A model generated the notes under the pieces. The model was not told where the DNA came from, ran no database searches, and saw only the letters and a list, made by a program, of their open reading frames with translations. A stretch of DNA of 64,000 nucleotides from contig DHPR01000010.1 in NCBI GenBank assembly GCA_002410925.1, forward strand, positions 30,295 through 94,294, read 5' to 3'. Each line of letters opens with the position of its first letter. Position 1 is the first letter of the stretch. Source of the stretch: a bacterium UBP13_UBA5359. GTDB taxonomy: Bacteria; UBP13; UBA5359. Of this stretch, positions 35,479-52,437 are shown one piece after another. A program made the position numbers and the translations under genes.

Positions 35479-36162
35479 ATGAACCGGGTGGAGAATATTA
35501 TAAACATTATGAATATGGAGAGAGCTTTTTCGGAAGAGGAGCTGATCAGACCCTTTGACCGTAAGGATATCAAATCTCGTGAGGGTGCTTATGGAAAAAG
35601 GCTGGATTACATCGAAGGGCATAAGGTTATAGAGCGCTTGAATAGAGCTACCGGTAACAGATGGAGCTCCGAAGTCATATCCGTACAAAAGCATCAGGCT
35701 GAGCAGCGCACTGATAAGCGTACCGGAGAGAGCATTTCTTATCCATCTTACTGGTCGGCTTTGGTCTCCCTGACCATACCCTCTATGGGTAGTCGTATGC
35801 AAGTTGGAACAAAGGCTATAAACGGCAATGAAGAGGATGATATCAAAGGAGCCATAACGGATGGCTTAAAGAAAGCGGCTACACTCTTCGGCGTTGGTCT
35901 GGAGCTGTATGAAACCGCTGATGAAGAGGCTGATATACGCTATTCGGCAGAACCGGAGCGACGAAGAGAGCCCGATAAAATAACCGAAGGACAGCGTAAA
36001 CTTCTTTTCACTATCTGTGAGGAAATAGGTATCCCCGTTGAAAAACAGCGTGAGCATATAGAAGCTAAGCTGGGGGCCATCATCGAGGGTGCTACGCGAG
36101 GCATGGCTACCATAGCTATTCAGGAGCTCAAAGCTGAGAAACGCCTCTTACGTGCCGGCTAA
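35479..36162 (+). CDS. Rad52/Rad22-family single-strand annealing protein (DdrA/Sak-like)
   Basis: DYIEGHKVIERLNRATGNRWSSEV and KGAITDGLKKAATLFGVGLELY match the two conserved Rad52 N-terminal blocks as I recall them. Confidence 0.6.
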   Translation: MNRVENIINIMNMERAFSEEELIRPFDRKDIKSREGAYGKRLDYIEGHKVIERLNRATGNRWSSEVISVQKHQAEQRTDKRTGESISYPSYWSALVSLTIPSMGSRMQVGTKAINGNEEDDIKGAITDGLKKAATLFGVGLELYETADEEADIRYSAEPERRREPDKITEGQRKLLFTICEEIGIPVEKQREHIEAKLGAIIEGATRGMATIAIQELKAEKRLLRAG

Positions 36163-36902: not shown

Positions 36903-37277
36903 ATGAAGTCTTTCTTTCCCCTGAGCATATCCGTTTCCGGAGAAGCCGTATCACGTGTTAAGCTTAAAGGTGAACTGGATGTCTATACCTCTCCAAAGCT
37001 CAGCGCAGTCCTGGGCGACCTTCTGGAACAGGGATGCATCCATATTATTCTGGACTTAGGTCGGCTGCAATTTATAGACAGCGCCGGCCTTGTTACTCTT
37101 GTAAGGCATAATGAAGAAGCCGCCAGAGCAGGCGGCAGCCTGATATTGCTGGACCCCGGCGCCCAGCTGAGAAAAGTGCTCAGGCTAACAGCTTTGGACC
37201 GTCATCTGCGGATAGAATTCAGCGCTGTGCGGAACAAGGAGACGGCTCCCCAAATGAAGGGGGCGGGTTATGCTTGA
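36903..37277 (+). CDS. STAS-domain anti-sigma-factor antagonist, second copy
   Basis: STAS pattern (KLKGELDVYTSPKL ... LQFIDSAGLVTLV). Confidence 0.7.
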   Translation: MKSFFPLSISVSGEAVSRVKLKGELDVYTSPKLSAVLGDLLEQGCIHIILDLGRLQFIDSAGLVTLVRHNEEAARAGGSLILLDPGAQLRKVLRLTALDRHLRIEFSAVRNKETAPQMKGAGYA

Positions 37278-37632
37278 GACGACAATATCTCTGCCTGGAA
37301 TGGATAAAGAGGCCATGCTTCTATGCGATAAAGGCATGAACTCCTTTCTGAAACTGGATATAATTCTTTTTTATCACAACAAGCGGTTATCCGATGCTGA
37401 TATAAATGAGCTTGCTCGCTATACGGGCAGATCACCGGTAGAGGTTGGAGATGCCGTATCGGCTTTGATCGAAGATGGCTTGCTGGAGTTATCTTCCAAT
37501 CGCAATGAAAGATACAGGCTTAGCGGTTTTCCCGATATCCCCAGGCTCTTGAACAAGTTCCTGGAAGCGTATAATCGATTGCCTCAGCGGCTTGCCATCC
37601 TGTCCAAGTTCTTGCGTGAGAATAGGTATTAG
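37270..37632 (+). CDS. Hypothetical protein, possible winged-helix domain
   Basis: 120 aa, no recognisable catalytic motif; overlaps both neighbours, suggesting co-translation in the partner-switching operon. Confidence 0.3.
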   Translation: MLETTISLPGMDKEAMLLCDKGMNSFLKLDIILFYHNKRLSDADINELARYTGRSPVEVGDAVSALIEDGLLELSSNRNERYRLSGFPDIPRLLNKFLEAYNRLPQRLAILSKFLRENRY

Positions 37633-39307
37633 CTGCGGGAATAGGGCGGGTGAAGAATTGAACGAAGATCTTCTCAGCGCATTGCGGAAATACTTTGAGC
37701 TCATGGCTGCTGCAGCACATCCGGGAAATATGAAGCAGGCATTTGCCGATATATTGGATAATACGATATCGGTTTTATCGGCAAACGGCGCGGCACTTTA
37801 TGCGAATACAGGCTCTGAAACTATGGGTGAGATCTTCATATGCAGAGAATTGCCGGATAATCTGTGTGATGAGCTGCAACGGCTCGGAGGTGCTGACAGC
37901 CTCAATGCGGATGCCAGGGAGGAGAACGTGAAAAGGGTCGACGGCGGCTTTTTGTATTCAGTGCTTATACGTCAAAAGCCGGTAATATGTCATCTCTTTG
38001 TATTGTATGAAAAGTGGCTTCCGGGTGAAGCCGAAAAGAAGGTGGCCTGCTCTCTGGCCGAGCTCTTTCTGGCATTGATATGCGAGCAAAGCCATTATCG
38101 GGAATTGGAGCAGCGTATGTATGAGAGCGTTGCTTTAGCCAGTATCGGGCGTACTATCGTTTCCACACTCGATATGGAAAGGGTCCTCAATCAAGTTGTC
38201 AAAATGGTTGCCTATGTAATGAACGCCGCCGTCTGCCTGATTGTTCTTTATGACGAAGAGGAAGGAGAACCGGCAGTGGGAGCTGCTTTCGGTATGGAAC
38301 GATTGGAAGAGAGTTCCGGCATTGTACGCCACGCGATAAATATATACAAGAGGGTGGAAGCGTTGCATAACGGTATTGATTGCAATACTGCAGAGAAATA
38401 CCTGGGCAGATTATGCTATATGGCGGTTCCACTCTTCTCCGGTGAGAGGATCAACGGAGTCGTAATTGTATACAGGGAAGAGGCTTTTTTTGAACATGAA
38501 AGGTCACTGATGCAGGCAACCGCTGCTCAGGCCTCGATTGCCCTGGAAAACGCACGCTTGCACAGCAGCCTGGCATCATTTACAGAACGTGAACTGCGTT
38601 TGGCTGCCGGAATACAGCAAGGCTTGCTTCCCAGGTCTCTGCCCCATACTGCTCAATACGATTTCGGTAGCAAGATACATTTTATGCGTGAAGTCGGCGG
38701 AGATTATTATGACATAATATCCCTCGGCAACGGGCGGCAAGGCATAAGTATCGGTGATGTATCCGGCAAGAGCGTTCCTGCTGCCATTCTGGTGGCTATG
38801 GCAAAGTACGTTTTGCGTGCTTCAGCAGTGACGGAGAATGACCCTGCGAGATCTCTGGAAGCCGTCAATCGCAATATTATCAATGATCTCTCTCCGGAGA
38901 TGTTTATAAGCATGTTCTATGGAATTCTGAATCTTGCCGATAACAAGCTTGTTTATGCCAATGCCGGTCATGAGCCGCCGCTGCTTTTCAGAGAACGTAG
39001 CCATAGCTGCCGTTTTTTGCAGGCGACAGGCGTAGTGCTGGGCGTAATGAGTAATAGTTCTTATCAGCACGCTACTGTGAAGCTTGAACAGGGTGATTGG
39101 CTGGTTCTATATACTGATGGCGTTACTGAGGCCAGGAAGAGCGACGGTGAACTTTTCGGCAGCCGTCGCGTTTGTGAAGCTCTTGAGCGCAATCATCATA
39201 TGCCTGCTCAGATTATGGCGGAGTATCTCTTCAAGGAGGTTTATGATTACTCCACCGGTAAGATAAGCGATGATGTAGCAATTCTGGCGATTAATAGAAT
39301 TGAATAA
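37592..39307 (+). CDS. GAF-domain PP2C-type serine phosphatase (RsbU/SpoIIE family)
   Basis: C-terminal SpoIIE/PP2C block (VGGDYYDII ... GDVSGKSVPAA ... LYTDGVTEA). The N-terminal start is uncertain because the ORF overlaps the upstream gene. Confidence 0.8.
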   Translation: MPSCPSSCVRIGISCGNRAGEELNEDLLSALRKYFELMAAAAHPGNMKQAFADILDNTISVLSANGAALYANTGSETMGEIFICRELPDNLCDELQRLGGADSLNADAREENVKRVDGGFLYSVLIRQKPVICHLFVLYEKWLPGEAEKKVACSLAELFLALICEQSHYRELEQRMYESVALASIGRTIVSTLDMERVLNQVVKMVAYVMNAAVCLIVLYDEEEGEPAVGAAFGMERLEESSGIVRHAINIYKRVEALHNGIDCNTAEKYLGRLCYMAVPLFSGERINGVVIVYREEAFFEHERSLMQATAAQASIALENARLHSSLASFTERELRLAAGIQQGLLPRSLPHTAQYDFGSKIHFMREVGGDYYDIISLGNGRQGISIGDVSGKSVPAAILVAMAKYVLRASAVTENDPARSLEAVNRNIINDLSPEMFISMFYGILNLADNKLVYANAGHEPPLLFRERSHSCRFLQATGVVLGVMSNSSYQHATVKLEQGDWLVLYTDGVTEARKSDGELFGSRRVCEALERNHHMPAQIMAEYLFKEVYDYSTGKISDDVAILAINRIE

Positions 39308-44123: not shown

Positions 44124-44210
44124 TGGTGCCGAAGCGGGGAGTTGAACCCCGACGAGCCATCGCTCACTAGGTCCTGAACCTAGCGCGTCTACCAATTCCG
44201 CCACTTCGGC
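44124..44210 (-). tRNA. tRNA-Leu (anticodon CAG)
   Basis: Reverse complement reads GCCGAAGTGGCGGAATTGGTAGACGCG ... with a perfect 7-bp acceptor stem, anticodon loop TTCAGGA, long variable arm, T-arm GGTTCAACTCC and 3' CCA. Confidence 0.8.
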
Positions 44211-45423: not shown

Positions 45424-45774
45424 ATGGCTCTTGAAACCAGTTTAACCGTAATAGCCGTTTGCATGATTGTTTTGGTGGCTGCTCTGCTGATGGTAGCCGT
45501 TGCAGCTTTGATCCTGGTTGCAAAATTAATCAGAGTTATCGGTAAGGCCGGCAAGACTGTGCAGGAAGTCAGGCAGCAGATCATGCCGTTGATCTCTCAG
45601 TTTCAATCGACAGGCAGGGAGATAAGTGAAACGGTGCTGTCCGTTACCGGAAGAATTTCCGAGACCGTCAACAGTATCATCCGGATGGTTGAATACTTCA
45701 CGAGCAATCCATTTAAAACAATTGCTCAGATCGTTGCCCGGTTTCGGCGGCAGCATACATCCAACGGCAGGTGA
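45424..45774 (+). CDS. Small membrane-anchored protein (DUF948/YtxH-like, putative general stress protein)
   Basis: N-terminal TM helix followed by a helical soluble region; family assignment is tentative. Confidence 0.35.
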   Translation: MALETSLTVIAVCMIVLVAALLMVAVAALILVAKLIRVIGKAGKTVQEVRQQIMPLISQFQSTGREISETVLSVTGRISETVNSIIRMVEYFTSNPFKTIAQIVARFRRQHTSNGR

Positions 45775-45824: not shown

Positions 45825-46361
45825 TTAACTCGGATAGATGATCCTATCTATAAGATGATACTGGAGCGCCGCTTCAGGGGTCAGATAGTAATCCTTCATA
45901 GTATCTATGCTGACCTCCTCGATGCTTTTGCCCGTATGGTGAGCAATTATGCTGTTCAATTGATGCTTCAGTCTGACGATCTCCAAGGCTGATGTTTCTA
46001 TCTCGCTGGCAGTACCAAAGGCTTTCCCGGAAGGCTGATGAATCAGCATGCGCGAGTTCGGCAGTGCAAAACGTTTCTCGGGGGCACCGCCTGCTAGAAC
46101 AATGGCTCCCATGGAACAGGCCTGCCCTACGCAGACAGTGATGACGTCGGGTTTGACGGTCTGCATAACATCATATATAGCCAAACCGGCCGTCACCAGT
46201 CCTCCAGGAGAATTAACGTATAGAGTTATATCCTCTGTCGGGTTTTCACATTCCAACTGAAGAAGCTTATCAATGATTTCATAACTGCTGGAATCATTAA
46301 TCTCCCCCTTGAGAAGGACTATACGTCTGTTGAGCAGATCCGAAGATTTATTGTCATGCAA
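45825..46361 (-). CDS. clpP: ATP-dependent Clp protease proteolytic subunit paralog, short N-terminus
   Basis: Catalytic Ser in GQACSMG, His in MLIHQP and a conserved Asp region. TTG start with an AAGGAAG RBS. Lacks the canonical N-terminal axial-loop residues. Confidence 0.8.
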   Translation of the reverse strand: MHDNKSSDLLNRRIVLLKGEINDSSSYEIIDKLLQLECENPTEDITLYVNSPGGLVTAGLAIYDVMQTVKPDVITVCVGQACSMGAIVLAGGAPEKRFALPNSRMLIHQPSGKAFGTASEIETSALEIVRLKHQLNSIIAHHTGKSIEEVSIDTMKDYYLTPEAALQYHLIDRIIYPS

Positions 46362-46403: not shown

Positions 46404-46428
46404 TATACACATTGTAACAATGTGTATA
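46404..46428. promoter_or_regulatory. 25-bp perfect palindrome TATACACATTGT-A-ACAATGTGTATA, candidate operator
   Basis: 12-bp perfect arms. Lies 43-67 bp upstream of the clpP-like start and overlaps the predicted -10 and spacer of its promoter. Confidence 0.5.
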
Positions 46429-46439: not shown

Positions 46440-46587
46440 TAAATAGACGCCCATAACACAAGAGCCCGCATGTTTAGCTTCAATTTTGCCAGGGTATATC
46501 TAGGCACGGGTAGCTGGCTCTGCATGGTATCCCTTAGGGATCAGCACAGAAATCCGGGTTGAATATTTATGGCGAAATGGAGAACCA

Positions 46588-47472
46588 TTGATGCCGAGTA
46601 TAGGAATTGCCACGGCATATCCGGAGGCTGATTGGCACAGCAGGCAACTTATAGATGCCGCTTCCAGAAGAGCAAAGACCATGGTGATAGATCCGGGAGA
46701 TCTATCAGTCAATATCGGTGATTACGGCATATCGGTTAGGACGAGCACCGGCAGCCTCGACGGACTGGACGGGCTGATTCTGCTGCGGGCTATAAACGAA
46801 AAGGGCAATCCGGATCATCAGATAGAGATATATAGAGCATTGAGCGGCGCGGGATTGCCGATGATGAATAATATTCAAGCTGCTTTGGCGGCACAGGATA
46901 AGTTCAGGAGCAGCTTCGCCTTCCGGCAGGCAGGCCTGCCCTCTCCCAGAGTTGTTACTGTTCAAAACTTCAGGGAGGGCGTCAGCTACTTACGAGAGAT
47001 GGGGGAGGTAGTGATAAAGCCGATATATGGATCTCTTGGCGAGGGGATAATGCGTCTTTCTGCAGATGATGAGGGAATATTCTTTTTGAAGAGATATCTT
47101 GAGCGAGATGGAGTAGCATATCTGCAGAAATACATCGACAAACCGAATCGGGACATTAGAGTTTTTGTTATAGGAGGAAGAGCTGTAGCTGCCGTATACA
47201 GGGTGGCGAGTGAAGGAAAATGGTTAACGAATATACACTGTGGTGCTCGGGCTCTTCCTTGCAAGCTCTCTTCTGAAACGGAAGCGCTCAGTATAAAGGC
47301 CGCTGCTTCTATAGGTCTGGATTATACAGGGGTTGATATTATTGAAACAGATCGGGGTCCTCAGGTTATTGAAGTAAATGGTTCGCCGCACTGGCAGGGA
47401 GTACATCAGGCTACAGGAAAGGATATAGCCGGCTTGATAGTAGAGCATATGCTGAAGAGAATAGAAGACTGA
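46588..47472 (+). CDS. RimK-family ATP-grasp ligase (alpha-L-glutamate ligase-like)
   Basis: ATP-grasp fold pattern (VVIKPIYGSLGEGI ... YLQKYI ... DIRVFVIGGR ... GVDIIETDRGPQVIEVNGSP). ATG at 46591 is an alternative start. Confidence 0.75.
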   Translation: MMPSIGIATAYPEADWHSRQLIDAASRRAKTMVIDPGDLSVNIGDYGISVRTSTGSLDGLDGLILLRAINEKGNPDHQIEIYRALSGAGLPMMNNIQAALAAQDKFRSSFAFRQAGLPSPRVVTVQNFREGVSYLREMGEVVIKPIYGSLGEGIMRLSADDEGIFFLKRYLERDGVAYLQKYIDKPNRDIRVFVIGGRAVAAVYRVASEGKWLTNIHCGARALPCKLSSETEALSIKAAASIGLDYTGVDIIETDRGPQVIEVNGSPHWQGVHQATGKDIAGLIVEHMLKRIED

Positions 47473-47498
47473 TTTCATTGGGAAAGGGGGTGAAAAGC

Positions 47499-47690
47499 AT
47501 GGCAGAGAATAAGGGCAAGATAACGGTTGGCGAGGCCGGCCATAAGGGCGGGGAGTTGGGCGGTGAAAAGGGCGGAGAGACTACCCGTGAGCGCTATGGT
47601 CATGAATTTTATGAAGAGATCGGCCATAAAGGCGGCCAGAAGGTTAAAAAACTGATTGAAGAGGGTAAAAGAGCATTGGGCGAAAAGTAA
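47499..47690 (+). CDS. GsiB-like KGG-repeat stress protein (hydrophilin), copy 1
   Basis: MAENKGKITVGEAGHKGG ... RERYGHEFYEEIGHKGGQKVKKLIEEGK. Own RBS GGGGGTGA. Confidence 0.8.
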   Translation: MAENKGKITVGEAGHKGGELGGEKGGETTRERYGHEFYEEIGHKGGQKVKKLIEEGKRALGEK

Positions 47691-47777
47691 CTCTATGCAG
47701 AAGCATAATGAGTTTAGCATTATGTGTGAGTCCGTATGTGATTGAACGTAATGCCGGGAAAGAAGGGGGTGAAAAGC

Positions 47778-47939
47778 ATGGCAGAAAACAAGGGCAAGAT
47801 GACGGTCAGCGAGGCCGGCCAAAAGGGTGGAATAACCGTACGGAACAAGTATGGCCATGAATTTTATGAAGAGATCGGCCATAAGGGCGGCCAGAAGGTT
47901 AAAAAACTGATTGAAGAGGGCAAGCGTTCAGGCGGCTGA
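47778..47939 (+). CDS. GsiB-like KGG-repeat stress protein, copy 2
   Basis: MAENKGKMTVSEAGQKGG ... YGHEFYEEIGHKGGQKVKKLIEEGKRSGG; one internal repeat. Confidence 0.8.
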   Translation: MAENKGKMTVSEAGQKGGITVRNKYGHEFYEEIGHKGGQKVKKLIEEGKRSGG

Positions 47940-47996
47940 CTTACAATTCTCGGATAACAGGTTAAATAAGAAAGAATTACGGAGGGGGTGAAAATC

Positions 47997-48278
47997 ATGG
48001 CAGAGAATAAGGGTAAGATGACGGTCAGCGAGGCCGGCCAGAAGGGCGGGCGCACGACCAAGCAGCGCTATGGTCACGGTTTTTACGAAGAGATAGGCAA
48101 GAAGGGCGGGATGACCGTGCGCGATAAATATGGCCATCCTTTCTATGAGGAGATTGGCGGTAAAGGCGGCGAAGCAGTACGCGATAAATATGGTACGCCT
48201 TTCTATGAAGAGATCGGACACAAAGGCGGTCAGAAGGTTAAAAGGTTGATCGAGGAAGGTAAGAAGAGTATGAAATAA
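47997..48278 (+). CDS. GsiB-like KGG-repeat stress protein, copy 3
   Basis: Three YGxxFYEEIGxKGG repeats. Confidence 0.8.
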   Translation: MAENKGKMTVSEAGQKGGRTTKQRYGHGFYEEIGKKGGMTVRDKYGHPFYEEIGGKGGEAVRDKYGTPFYEEIGHKGGQKVKRLIEEGKKSMK

Positions 48279-48370
48279 CCGTAGTTCGCAAACTCATAGC
48301 TCGATCAAAGGCCTGATGGCAGCTTGAATGGTAAATAAGCAATAAATCGAGCATGGAAGGGGGTGAGAGG

Positions 48371-48604
48371 ATGGCAGAGAATAAGGGCAGGATGACGGTC
48401 AGCGAGGCCGGCCAGAAGGGCGGACGCATGACCAGGGAGCGTTACGGTCACGGTTTTTATGAGGAAATAGGGCAAAAGGGCGGCGAGATAGGTGGCGAGA
48501 CCACCAAGGAGCGTTATGGCCATCCCTTCTATGAGGAGATCGGGCACAAAGGCGGTCAGAAGGTTAAAAAGCTGATTGAAGAGGGCAAAAAGAGTGGAGG
48601 CTGA
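48371..48604 (+). CDS. GsiB-like KGG-repeat stress protein, copy 4
   Basis: Two YGHxFYEEIGxKGG repeats and the conserved C-terminus. Confidence 0.8.
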   Translation: MAENKGRMTVSEAGQKGGRMTRERYGHGFYEEIGQKGGEIGGETTKERYGHPFYEEIGHKGGQKVKKLIEEGKKSGG

Positions 48605-48725
48605 TTCATAGCGCATGCCGTGCAACTCATAGCTTGCCAATGTTCTAATCGTTGCTTTGGACGGAGCGTAGAGCAACTGTAAAGGAGCGATGAGGTGCGG
48701 GTACTGAGCAAGGAGGTGATTGCAA

Positions 48726-49085
48726 ATGCCTGAAGAGAAAAAAGGCAAGATGACGGTTGGTGAAGCTGGACAGAAGGGCGGCGAGAGCACTAGTCGCAAA
48801 TACGGCAAGCCCTTTTACGAAGAAATCGGCGAGATGGGCGGGGAAACAACTAAAGAACGCTATGGCCATGAGTTCTATGAAGAGATTGGTCAAAAGGGTG
48901 GCGAAAAGGGTGGCGAAACCACCAGGGAGCGTTACGGCCATGAGTTTTATGAAGAGATAGGTGAAAAAGGCGGCGAGACCACCAGTCAGAAATATGGCAA
49001 ACCCTTCTACGAGGAGATTGGGCACAAAGGCGGTCAGAAGGTTAAAAAGCTGATTGAAGAGGGCAAGAAAGCTGAACATGAATAG
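48726..49085 (+). CDS. GsiB-like KGG-repeat stress protein, copy 5
   Basis: Four repeats. ATG after an AAGGAGGTGA RBS. Confidence 0.8.
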   Translation: MPEEKKGKMTVGEAGQKGGESTSRKYGKPFYEEIGEMGGETTKERYGHEFYEEIGQKGGEKGGETTRERYGHEFYEEIGEKGGETTSQKYGKPFYEEIGHKGGQKVKKLIEEGKKAEHE

Positions 49086-49125
49086 GCTGTGAATTTAAAC
49101 AAAGAATCGATAAGGAGGTGTAAAG

Positions 49126-49344
49126 ATGGCAGAAAAAGGCAAGATGACGGTCAGCGAGGCCGGGCAGAAGGGAGGGCGCACTACCAGGGAGCGTTACGGC
49201 CATGAGTTCTACGAGGAGATAGGTGAAAAGGGTGGAACCACGGTACGTGAGAAGTACGGCACGCCCTTCTACGAGGAGATCGGCCATAAGGGTGGACAAA
49301 AGGTTAAAAAGCTGATTGAAGAGGGCAAGAAGGCCATGGGATAA
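49126..49344 (+). CDS. GsiB-like KGG-repeat stress protein, copy 6
   Basis: Two repeats. RBS AAGGAGGTG. Confidence 0.8.
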   Translation: MAEKGKMTVSEAGQKGGRTTRERYGHEFYEEIGEKGGTTVREKYGTPFYEEIGHKGGQKVKKLIEEGKKAMG

Positions 49345-49440
49345 AGTGAACGTATGGCGAGCGAAGGTTAGCAGATGTAATAAGGCAAGAGGCAGGGTTA
49401 CTATTTGACCCATGCCTCTTCCTCTTTGAGAGGAGAGCAT

Positions 49441-50499
49441 ATGCTGGTAGATATACTAAAAACGAGCCGTTCCATTCTGCTGCAAAAGCTGCCGTCGTTC
49501 GTTTATGGTGCGCCTGAATTGTATGGCCCTCCTGTCTTTATTTATCACCGAATTGATCCTGCAAGCTTCGAGAGGGATTTGAAGTATCTTACCGATAACG
49601 GCTATCTCTTTCTGAATGATGTATGCCTGCAAGCTATTATACAGGGCGATTATCCTTTTACCGGAAGAGAGGTAGCTCTGACCTTTGATGATGGCTATGA
49701 CGATCTATTACAGGTAGCAACACCTCTCTTACGCTCCTACGGCGCGGTTGCTACGGCCTTTATTGTCCCGGGTCTTATAGGATATCCCGGATATCTCAAC
49801 TGGGAAGATCTCTATCGTCTGTCATTATCAGGGGTGATCAGTATAGGTGCACATTCATACCGGCATGCCAAGATATTTGTTTCCGATATATTGGAGCAAT
49901 TTTATGTGCCTGACGATGCCGTAGAAGAGATTATAGTGCGCTGCAATGGATGTGACACTCTTCTATCGGTTGATGGTCGGTATGGCCGACCGTTATATCG
50001 TACCTCCTCCAGGCTGGGCGACCGTCCCAGATATCTGGAAGACGAGCAGCTGACCGCTTTATGCGTAGAGCGCACAGCGGAGATAACCTCCCTGCCGGGT
50101 AGCGAAGCATGGATGCGAGAGCTTTATTCTCTGTGCCGCCTTTACAAGAACAGGTATGGCGGCGGCAGGCTGGAAACATCTCAGGAGCAGGAGAGTGCTG
50201 TGCACGAGGAGCTGGCGTATGCAAAAGAGGTTCTGGAAACAAAGCTGAAGCATCGTATTATTTCACTATGCCTTCCCTGGAATGAGGGTGGAGAGCTGGT
50301 GCGCCGTCTCTGCCGCCCGGCAGGATATGATCTCTGCTTTGCCGGCTATATTGATGGTAATAAATCCAATGCTCCCGGAACAGATCCTTACGCAATATGC
50401 CGCCTAAGCGGAGATTTCGTCAGAACTCTTCCGGGTAGAGAGCGTGTCGGTCTGGCCTCTGTCTTAGCCGGCAAAATAGGAAGAAGGCTGAAGAGCTGA
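49441..50499 (+). CDS. Polysaccharide deacetylase (NodB-homology domain)
   Basis: TFDDGYDD and HSYRH motifs. Start taken at the internal ATG with a GAGAGGAGAG RBS. Confidence 0.7.
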   Translation: MLVDILKTSRSILLQKLPSFVYGAPELYGPPVFIYHRIDPASFERDLKYLTDNGYLFLNDVCLQAIIQGDYPFTGREVALTFDDGYDDLLQVATPLLRSYGAVATAFIVPGLIGYPGYLNWEDLYRLSLSGVISIGAHSYRHAKIFVSDILEQFYVPDDAVEEIIVRCNGCDTLLSVDGRYGRPLYRTSSRLGDRPRYLEDEQLTALCVERTAEITSLPGSEAWMRELYSLCRLYKNRYGGGRLETSQEQESAVHEELAYAKEVLETKLKHRIISLCLPWNEGGELVRRLCRPAGYDLCFAGYIDGNKSNAPGTDPYAICRLSGDFVRTLPGRERVGLASVLAGKIGRRLKS

Positions 50500-52169: not shown

Positions 52170-52173
52170 GCAT

Positions 52174-52437
52174 ATGGAACGAGAGCTTTTGCTGAATGAG
52201 GTCAGAAAGAGGCTGGCAGCCGAAGTGGGGGCTCTGGATATATTGGTGGAGATTGTTGATGATTCCGTCAGACTGTCAGGAGAGGTTGATAACCCTTGGC
52301 AGAGCGAGGCGGCCGTTCGCTCTTTACGTGATCTGGCCGGGCGAAGGAGAATAATCAACAATCTGGCAGTCCGGCAGATAAAAAGGCCGGATATATACCA
52401 TGAAATGATAACATCTGAGGAAAGGGAACGCAGATGA
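52174..52437 (+). CDS. BON-domain protein (putative)
   Basis: 87 aa with a BON-like pattern (VEIVDDSVRLSGEVDNPWQSEAAVRSLRDLAGRRRIINNLAV). Confidence 0.45.
   Translation: MERELLLNEVRKRLAAEVGALDILVEIVDDSVRLSGEVDNPWQSEAAVRSLRDLAGRRRIINNLAVRQIKRPDIYHEMITSEERERR

Follow-up and report, generated by a model that had tools for sequence, protein, structure and literature searches.

A clade of RimK/LysX-type ATP-grasp ligases encoded beside KGG hydrophilin genes: a possible two-component stress module

RimK of E. coli and Pseudomonas carries out poly-alpha-L-glutamylation of ribosomal protein S6 at a C-terminus that ends in Glu-Glu, and LysX acts on the side-chain gamma-carboxyl of LysW, a small protein that is encoded beside it. 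In all characterised members of this family known to us, ATP activates a glutamyl-type carboxylate, to which the amino group of L-glutamate or of 2-aminoadipate is added. The protection that hydrophilins and late embryogenesis abundant (LEA) proteins give against desiccation and osmotic stress is a long-open question, and to our knowledge no regulatory or maturation chemistry has been described for them, nor any modification of GsiB, YciG or plant Em, the described proteins closest to the small proteins treated below. Here we analyze a locus from the bacterium UBP13_UBA5359 in which the gene of a RimK-like ATP-grasp ligase is followed by six genes for hydrophilins of the KGG family. The locus occupies positions 46588 to 49344 of a 64,000-nucleotide stretch of contig DHPR01000010.1, which is referred to as the window and whose numbering is used throughout. 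The original prediction, made from the sequence alone, was that the ligase and at least the first hydrophilin gene are probably on one transcript, with the speculation that the ligase modifies the KGG proteins. Co-transcription and a functional link between the ligase and the KGG genes are strongly supported by the data below, in which small proteins encoded next to it emerge as a new class of partner for a RimK/LysX-type ligase.

Conserved adjacency of the ligase and KGG genes

The ligase gene lies on the plus strand in an open reading frame that was confirmed at 46588..47472. Translation probably begins at the ATG at 46591, which a GGAG precedes by 8 nt, giving a carboxylate-amine ligase of 293 aa from the RimK/LysX/MptN family (46591..47472); a homologue with 90% identity (P0001) is called from the same Met. 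The TGA stop ends at 47472 and the ATG of KGG1 is at 47499, so the 26 nt that the original prediction gave for the distance was exact, and the spacer (47473..47498, + strand) contains the Shine-Dalgarno sequence GGGGGTG and no terminator. The KGG genes are all on the plus strand. KGG1 (47499..47690, 63 aa) is of a single-repeat type with GGELGGEKGGETT, a type also present 3' of the ligase in Armatimonadota and in several Myxococcota loci. It is followed by KGG2 (47778..47939, 53 aa) with one repeat and a C-terminal tail, KGG3 (47997..48278, 93 aa) with three repeats and the tail, KGG4 (48371..48604, 77 aa) with two, KGG5 (48726..49085, 119 aa) with four and KGG6 (49126..49344, 72 aa) again with two, each of the last three also carrying the tail. 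No further KGG or ligase genes were found within the 64-kb window. The Shine-Dalgarno sequence is strong at every KGG gene and weak at the ligase, which fits many substrate copies per enzyme.

To quantify the conservation of this arrangement we used a genome census with one genome per species (GTDB), comprising at least 80 loci, in which a profile score of at least 286 bits was taken as clade level and all counts are lower bounds. Among the matches listed there were at least 46 clade-level loci, all of them bacterial, and 34 lower-scoring loci that form the outgroup. Directly adjacent KGG genes on the same strand were present in 45 of the 46 clade members listed, downstream of the ligase in 44 cases and upstream in one (L059), and in the sole exception the contig ends 74 bp past the ligase. 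Beside the listed outgroup ligases, which come from archaea, Acidobacteriota and Burkholderiales, a KGG gene was found in none of 34 cases (Fisher p = 8e-22 for clade against outgroup). The clade members belong to at least four phyla and include Myxococcota, Armatimonadota, Actinomycetota, the Bacillota-like lineage of the window and unclassified metagenome-assembled genomes; cultured carriers include Anaeromyxobacter oryzae Red232, A. terrae, A. oryzisoli and strain PSR-1. The same adjacency was seen in all metagenome and assembly loci that bear a clade ligase. Gene-neighbourhood conservation, which had been proposed as a check, is thus present in related as well as distant genomes.

The spacing is generally tight. 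The median distance between the stop of the ligase and the conserved "MTV" codon with which the first KGG gene is aligned is 28 nt (82 loci), which is an upper bound on the gap, and in one locus (L011) the two genes overlap by 4 nt; an Actinomycetota-like subgroup has wider gaps of 160-280 nt. In relatives with ligase identities of 90%, 75% and 56% the order clpP / ligase / KGG is kept. Homologues at 41-46% identity lie in other neighbourhoods, yet 2-7 KGG genes follow immediately 3' of the ligase; one such group is flanked by rpoZ-dnaJ-DUF1444 on one side and a histidine kinase/response regulator on the other, another by a metallophosphatase and a Ser/Thr kinase. An all-against-all comparison of flanking open reading frames from 23 diverse loci revealed no third gene family common across lineages, and a conserved protease, transporter or regulator as partner was rejected on the same comparison. 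The conserved unit therefore consists of exactly two components, the ligase and the KGG proteins.

The co-occurrence is one-way, in that the ligase is always accompanied by KGG genes in the loci listed and KGG genes also occur with no ligase nearby. Tail-bearing KGG genes free of a ligase were found in 13 metagenome loci with more than 1 kb on both sides, among them arrays of three, four and seven genes. Such a one-way dependency is the pattern expected of an accessory modifying enzyme acting on a pre-existing protein family. The module may have spread between phyla as a mobile stress cassette of two gene families.

The RimK-like ATP-grasp identity of the enzyme was borne out by the Pfam profile RimK (PF08443, 106 bits against a threshold of 21) and by TIGR00768, the "RimK family alpha-L-glutamate ligase" model of subfamily level, which with 189.6 bits (cutoff 143.4) is the only NCBIfam model passed. 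All other models stayed below their cutoffs: MptN (NF040720), the highest-scoring NCBIfam model, at 241 bits against 350, LysX/ArgX (TIGR02144) at 163 against 275.6, the GAK-system ATP-grasp (TIGR04356) at 153 against 300, S6-RimK (NF007764) at 99 against 331, CofF (TIGR04443) at 56 against 300, and the graspetide maturase (TIGR04187) at 31 against 350. Four other clade members gave the same result, passing TIGR00768 and failing every equivalog model, and a model specific to the KGG-linked clade was found neither in NCBIfam and Pfam nor in the other libraries searched. Source annotations of clade members range from "RimK family" to "S6--L-glutamate ligase" and "tetrahydromethanopterin:alpha-L-glutamate ligase".

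By sequence the nearest relatives in the PDB are Thermus LysX (3VPD and 1UC8, both LysX/ArgX matches) and the RimK enzymes of Pseudomonas and E. coli, at about 30% identity. A neighbour-joining tree of 112 sequences, distance-based and without support values, places the KGG-linked ligases in one clade, with a proteobacterial set as sister, LysX and archaeal homologues further out, and E. coli RimK as a distant outgroup. Phylogenetic placement, also among the checks proposed at the outset, thus sets the ligase apart from S6-RimK (99 against 331 bits). The sub-cutoff equivalog scores together with the separate clade exclude that the enzyme is S6-RimK, LysX, MptN, CofF or a graspetide maturase. 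A search of 1.84 billion representative proteins (50% identity clusters) with the clade profile returned 2,076 matches at E<=1e-30, about 24 of which are at clade level; judged from sequence, the KGG-linked ligases are a small, sharply delimited family. The sister clade has members in Paraburkholderia, Azohydromonas and Jiella. In the sole sister locus read, from Paraburkholderia (L068, 2797-9486), the ligase lies amid genes resembling a tetrahydromethanopterin (H4MPT)-type C1-cofactor cluster, of which a methenyl-H4MPT cyclohydrolase-like gene, another ATP-grasp, a dihydroneopterin-aldolase-like gene and a pterin-binding gene were recognised by eye from the translations.

The transcription unit and its surroundings

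About 95 nt 5' of the ligase start we find a sigmaB-type promoter-like element, GTTTAG-N14-GGGTAT (46472..46497, + strand). When the upstream region of the window was aligned with those of three relatives with ligase identities of 90% (L001), 75% (L006) and 56% (L005), a single invariant block, ATGTTTAGCTTCA...GGGTATAT, was apparent; it contains this element, and the rest of the upstream region has diverged. The pattern GTTT-N14-17-GGGWAW has this element as its only intergenic match in the 64-kb window, and the same search of the window gave no extra sigmaB-type promoters between the KGG genes. The element resembles the sigmaB consensus, GTTTAA-N12-14-GGGTAT, as for B. subtilis gsiB, and its putative assignment to sigmaB combines the likeness to this consensus with the conservation in the alignment. 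No sigB gene was seen.

A terminator scan of the plus strand between 46300 and 49600 returned no terminator-like sites, the spacer between the ligase and KGG1 has a folding energy of only -3.2 kcal/mol, and no fold significantly better than those of shuffled controls was obtained for any of the five KGG-KGG intergenic regions. The claim that no terminator separates the ligase from KGG1 is thus in agreement with both the scan and the fold. The region 49345-49440 folds with -31.7 kcal/mol (z = -2.9), and a terminator-like hairpin with a 13-bp stem and one bulge, followed by CCUCUUUG, is located 3' of KGG6 (49388..49427, + strand, hairpin 49388-49419); it is the probable end of the transcription unit. 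A polysaccharide deacetylase gene extends to 50499 on the plus strand and probably starts at the ATG at 49441 rather than at the TTG at 49405, which makes the hairpin intergenic. An Rfam scan of the window gave tRNA only and no riboswitch or leader ahead of the operon. These features are most simply read as a single stress-induced transcript that runs from the ligase through the six KGG genes, an operon of approximately 2.9 kb. With a conserved promoter-like element upstream, no internal terminator and a terminator-like hairpin only after KGG6, co-transcription of the ligase with the hydrophilin genes, originally proposed for at least the first of them, is strongly supported.

Approximately 9 kb 5' of the promoter-like element the window holds a putative partner-switching stress-signalling cassette (36903-39307, + strand), composed of a STAS protein of 124 aa, an open reading frame of 120 aa and a GAF-PP2C (SpoIIE-family) phosphatase of 571 aa. 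The combination of STAS and SpoIIE-family PP2C proteins is a hallmark of partner-switching stress pathways.

A ClpP paralogue of 178 aa (45825-46361, - strand), which scores 220 against 308 bits on the NCBIfam ClpP equivalog, is encoded divergently from the ligase. This divergent arrangement was found only in the Bacillota-like relatives (L001-L005) and in no other phyla, and it lies outside the conserved module. The short ClpP paralogue recalls the RimB protease partner of Pseudomonas RimK. Between the two genes lies a palindrome of 25 nt with 11-bp arms (46404-46428), reported on the minus strand as TATACACATTGTTACAATGTGTATA, which overlaps an extended -10 sigma70-like promoter, TTGACG-17-TACAAT (46439-46411, - strand), facing the clpP paralogue. 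The palindrome is partly kept in L005 and L006 and could serve the clpP paralogue as an operator. Other features of the window include a DUF948 protein (45424-45774, + strand; weak Pfam match of 29 against 37 bits), a Rad52/Rad22-family recombination protein (35479-36162, + strand, 73 bits), of a kind that is unusual on bacterial chromosomes and often phage-derived, and tRNA-Leu(CAG) (44124-44210, - strand) between a PSP1-like gene and a methyltransferase. A BON-domain protein is annotated in L001 (11585-11848) at a place corresponding to about 52170-52430 of the window.

The KGG proteins as putative substrates

All six KGG genes of the window pass the Pfam KGG profile (PF10685) with 23-56 bits against a gathering threshold of 20.4. 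KGG3 and KGG5 also pass LEA_5 (PF00477, gathering threshold 40) with 40.4 and 54.0 bits, and the other four fall below it at 22-37.5. Each protein combines MAENKGKMTVSEAGQKGG at the N-terminus with between one and four repeats, which end in FYEEIGxKGG, and with the subterminal tail KGGQKV[KR]xLIEEGK[KR], after which come a few variable residues. They are strongly hydrophilic with 19-24% Gly, and five of the six are basic (pI 8.0-9.6), KGG5 being the only acidic paralogue (pI 5.7). The Lys of KGG and the Glu of YEEIG are invariant, and Thr has no conserved position in the repeat core. The initial description of a Glu/Lys/Thr-rich core between conserved termini therefore stands for the N-terminal MAENKGKMTVSEAGQKGG and for the subterminal tail, but not for Thr and not for the extreme C-termini, which read EK, GG, MK, GG, HE and MG in the six proteins. 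The tail is followed by 3 to 18 residues, the last of which is R, K, E, G, T or S.

The tail itself was considered as a recognition tag for the ligase, and this was rejected because the same tail occurs where no ligase is present within 1-7 kb. Of the 120 best KGG6 homologues, 119 have it, and its profile is position-for-position identical in ligase-linked and ligase-free KGG genes. Abundant single-copy KGG proteins with three repeats (the P0305- and P0281-type families, L173-L178) carry it as well; no ligase was found within 5 kb of their genes, and their internal repeats read FYE[T/Q/A/S]IG, with FYEEIG only in the last repeat.

As for the enzyme, an AlphaFold2 model of the 75%-identical ligase P0002 (predicted local distance difference test score, pLDDT, 95; predicted template modelling score, pTM, 0.90) has RimK as its best fold match (template modelling score, TM, 0.82/0.89), followed by LysX/ArgX and then by the graspetide ligases PsnB, PruB and AMdnB (TM about 0.65-0.72). 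The residues K104, K143, R190, D249, E261 and N263 are invariant and correspond to K100, K141, R189, D248, E260 and N262 of E. coli RimK, and the ATP/Mg site and catalytic core are intact. Specific to the clade is an acidic N-domain with D14 (in 99%), acidic positions 12-13 (E12/E13), D73 and D75, a single inserted residue together with an invariant Gly (G72), and a loop with a GDPD-type motif. Clade members have Gln at position 77, where Arg occurs in 89% of the outgroup sequences; this Arg is absent from E. coli RimK and LysX as well. The clade ligases have a median pI of 5.8, and the remaining family members compared have one of 8.4.

Three observations hint at a direct relation between enzyme and substrate, although they are suggestive only. 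The first is a natural fusion. In P0002 the ligase continues in frame into the final 28 residues of KGG1 (…LLQKIK|FYEETGHKGGHKVKKLIEEGKRALDEGR), and this gene was found in two independent metagenomes (L006 372-1334; L007 263-1225). The deletion took out everything from the stop codon through codon 36 of KGG1, including the spacer, and the appended tail is modelled as helical with a pLDDT of 71-85. The second is charge complementarity. RimK and LysX are basic and their substrates S6 and LysW are acidic, and the acidic ligase beside basic KGG proteins looks suggestively like the mirror image of these pairs. The third is conservation of the Glu-Glu dyad in the internal repeats, which is present in 86% (201/234) of the repeats at ligase-linked loci compared to 38% (6/16) at ligase-free loci and 21% in the 120 best KGG6 homologues, the latter being mostly ligase-free singleton families with FYE[TQAS]IG.

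Two further cases resembling a fusion were seen. An apparent ligase-KGG fusion in L051 was rejected, since the long open reading frame is in another frame than the ligase, and P0111 from the representative library, which ends in '...VPDLIEAGKRSGRE', looks like a frameshifted read-through into a KGG gene and is ambiguous. Besides the RimK-like ligase, one lineage has a second, unrelated ATP-grasp protein of 398 aa (Pfam CPSase_L_D2/ATP-grasp_3/ATPgrasp_Ter) whose gene is inserted into the KGG array in reverse orientation (L099 7207-8403, - strand, also L098 and L123); this protein may be a further modifying enzyme, for instance one half of an initiator/elongator pair.

Our preferred reading, to which we give a probability of roughly 0.45, is that the KGG proteins are substrates of the adjacent ligase and that the two form a stress module. 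A protein substrate is made plausible by the LysW-LysX and S6-RimK precedents, the latter with a Glu-Glu acceptor. For the modified residue and the adduct our confidence is lower than for the substrate claim. The specific proposal, that LEA-like KGG hydrophilins of bacteria are glutamylated or otherwise amidated on the internal FYEEIG Glu side chains by a dedicated RimK-family ligase, is accordingly put forward as tentative. At the expense of ATP, the ligase would convert a glutamate carboxylate of a KGG protein into an acyl-phosphate, and by analogy with the gamma-carboxyl used by LysX the best acceptor would be a side chain within the Glu-Glu dyad of the FYEEIG repeats. Candidate acceptors would thus lie within YGHEFYEEIGHK or else in the tail, where LIEEGK is deemed less likely than the YEEIG dyad. 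An amine would then be ligated, most likely free L-glutamate, leading to mono- or poly-glutamylation, and glutamylation is the most likely adduct chemistry. The added negative charge could alter the charge and hydration behaviour of the basic hydrophilins under stress. Since the C-termini are variable and mostly non-acidic and the invariant acidic positions are internal, side-chain glutamylation is favoured over C-terminal extension. RimK-style extension of a conserved acidic C-terminus was considered and is disfavoured because the stretch behind the tail is variable in both length and identity; the suggested addition of glutamate to a conserved terminus consequently fits the KGG proteins poorly.

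Several points weigh against the preferred reading. Modification of the KGG proteins is something that we infer, and not from direct evidence. The P0002 fusion could be a neutral in-frame deletion. The contrasts in Glu-Glu dyad and pI are phylogenetically non-independent, with a linked set that is dominated by Anaeromyxobacter and few ligase-free sequences. The tail is not specific to ligase-linked KGG proteins and so provides no dedicated recognition tag, and the variable, mostly non-acidic C-termini argue against a simple RimK-style extension. Finally, with MptN as the top match among hidden Markov models (HMMs) and a sister clade in a cofactor cluster, the nearest relatives may act on small molecules.

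The last point leads to an alternative that we consider unlikely, namely that the ligase makes a free product such as poly-alpha-glutamate, a Glu-containing di- or oligopeptide or an osmolyte, which acts alongside the KGG proteins, the link being one of co-regulation and joint transfer as a desiccation cassette. In a variant, a polyanionic product and the KGG proteins, five of which are basic among the six in the window, could together give coacervates or glasses. According to PMC10375531, RimK makes free poly-alpha-Glu in vitro. The top HMM match and the sister clade, both of cofactor or small-molecule glutamate ligases, point in the same direction, as does a KGG tail that is not ligase-specific. 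However, a stand-alone enzyme would be expected to occur apart from KGG genes at times, and this was never seen among the 46 species listed. Near-abutting or overlapping genes are common, an in-frame fusion of the ligase to a KGG tail exists, and an acidic enzyme surface would be unexpected for making or handling a polyanion.

Graspetide-like cross-linking, in which KGG repeats would be joined internally or to one another through isopeptide (Lys-Glu) or ester (Thr/Ser-Glu) bonds with no free Glu added, is improbable. It would account for an ATP-grasp gene beside tandem small genes with repeated Lys/Glu/Thr-rich cores, as in multi-core graspetide loci, for the invariant KGG Lys and YEEIG Glu, and for PsnB, PruB and AMdnB as structural neighbours (TM about 0.65-0.72). 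The sequence nevertheless gives no support to the cross-linking enzyme that had been envisaged, as the graspetide model scores 31 bits (cutoff 350) against 190-240 for the glutamate-ligase models. In addition, the fold is nearer RimK and LysX, the Thr positions of the repeat are not conserved, the conserved module contains no leader-peptide motif, protease or exporter, and a phylogenomic survey of graspetides makes no mention of KGG. That the ligase acts on another target, be it ribosomal protein S6 or a cofactor tail as MptN and CofF do, with the KGG proteins as chaperones or regulators of the enzyme or as co-regulated neighbours, agrees with RimK-family membership and with MptN as top equivalog match but is equally improbable, given sub-cutoff scores for S6-RimK (99/331), MptN (241/350) and CofF (56/300 bits), the distant outgroup position of E. 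coli RimK and the flank comparison, in which no cofactor-biosynthesis or ribosomal genes are conserved near the KGG-linked ligases, and given that it leaves the strict KGG adjacency unexplained.

Significance and relation to known systems

A full-text literature search over 8 million papers found no paper linking RimK or ATP-grasp enzymes with KGG, GsiB, YciG, LEA or hydrophilin, and neither a structural paper on RimK that discusses genetic contexts nor the graspetide survey mentions the ligase-KGG link. The statement that hydrophilin modification has no described precedent thus held in this search. If KGG proteins are indeed substrates of the ligase, this would be the first enzymatic modification system known for any hydrophilin or LEA protein, a prokaryotic counterpart of tubulin polyglutamylation, and a third class of protein substrate for the RimK/LysX family after S6 and LysW, and tuning of charge by glutamylation could control hydrophilin function. 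The clade defined here is at present annotated only generically or mislabelled as S6 or tetrahydromethanopterin ligase, and the cultured Anaeromyxobacter carriers make genetics feasible.

Among the described systems, RimK/S6 shares the ATP-grasp fold (best structural match, TM 0.82/0.89, about 30% identity), membership of TIGR00768 and the catalytic Lys, Arg, Asp, Glu and Asn, and S6 and the putative KGG substrates both have a Glu-Glu motif. The window ligase differs in its distant position in the tree, in its score (99 vs 331 bits) and in being acidic rather than basic, and the putative substrates differ in being adjacent, basic, disordered, present as several paralogues and without a conserved acidic C-terminus. 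LysX/ArgX-LysW of Thermus, Sulfolobus and Thermococcus provides the best PDB sequence matches and the precedent of a ligase gene beside a small protein substrate, here a putative one. In contrast to that system, the score is 163 vs 275.6 bits, neither LysZ/Y/J/K-type nor lysW neighbours were found at the KGG-linked loci of any lineage, the KGG proteins have no globular zinc-finger domain and no EDWGE C-terminus, and there are one to seven putative substrate genes instead of one.

MptN/CofF and the bacterial homologue in the H4MPT cluster are close in that MptN is the top NCBIfam model and the sister clade (L068) lies in a C1-cofactor cluster, but the score is below the cutoff of 350, the KGG-linked loci have no cofactor genes, and Gln replaces at position 77 the Arg found in 89% of the outgroup set, which is mostly made up of this group. 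The graspetide (microviridin/plesiocin) maturases are similar in having an ATP-grasp gene together with several small adjacent genes with repeated cores, and in both a conserved helix of the small partner could dock on the enzyme. The window ligase is nearer the glutamate ligases in sequence and fold, however, and KGG is a widespread stress family, mostly without a ligase, whose members are not secreted or cleaved peptides.

On the side of the small proteins, GsiB, YciG and plant Em (KGG, LEA_5) are the closest, as the window proteins match Pfam KGG and two of them reach LEA_5. The N-terminal M(T/S)V.EAG.KGG and the repeat of the window proteins resemble those of GsiB, and the promoter-like element of the window would be of the sigmaB type, as for gsiB. 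The window subfamily is different in carrying the C-terminal amphipathic tail KGGQKV+xLIEEGK+ and in being coupled to a ligase in one clade of genomes. As regards mechanism, TTLL glutamylases are ATP-grasp enzymes that add Glu to the gamma-carboxyl of an internal Glu in a disordered, Glu-rich segment. The likeness is by analogy and concerns the proposed mechanism only; TTLL enzymes are eukaryotic and belong to another ATP-grasp family, with which we claim no homology beyond the fold.

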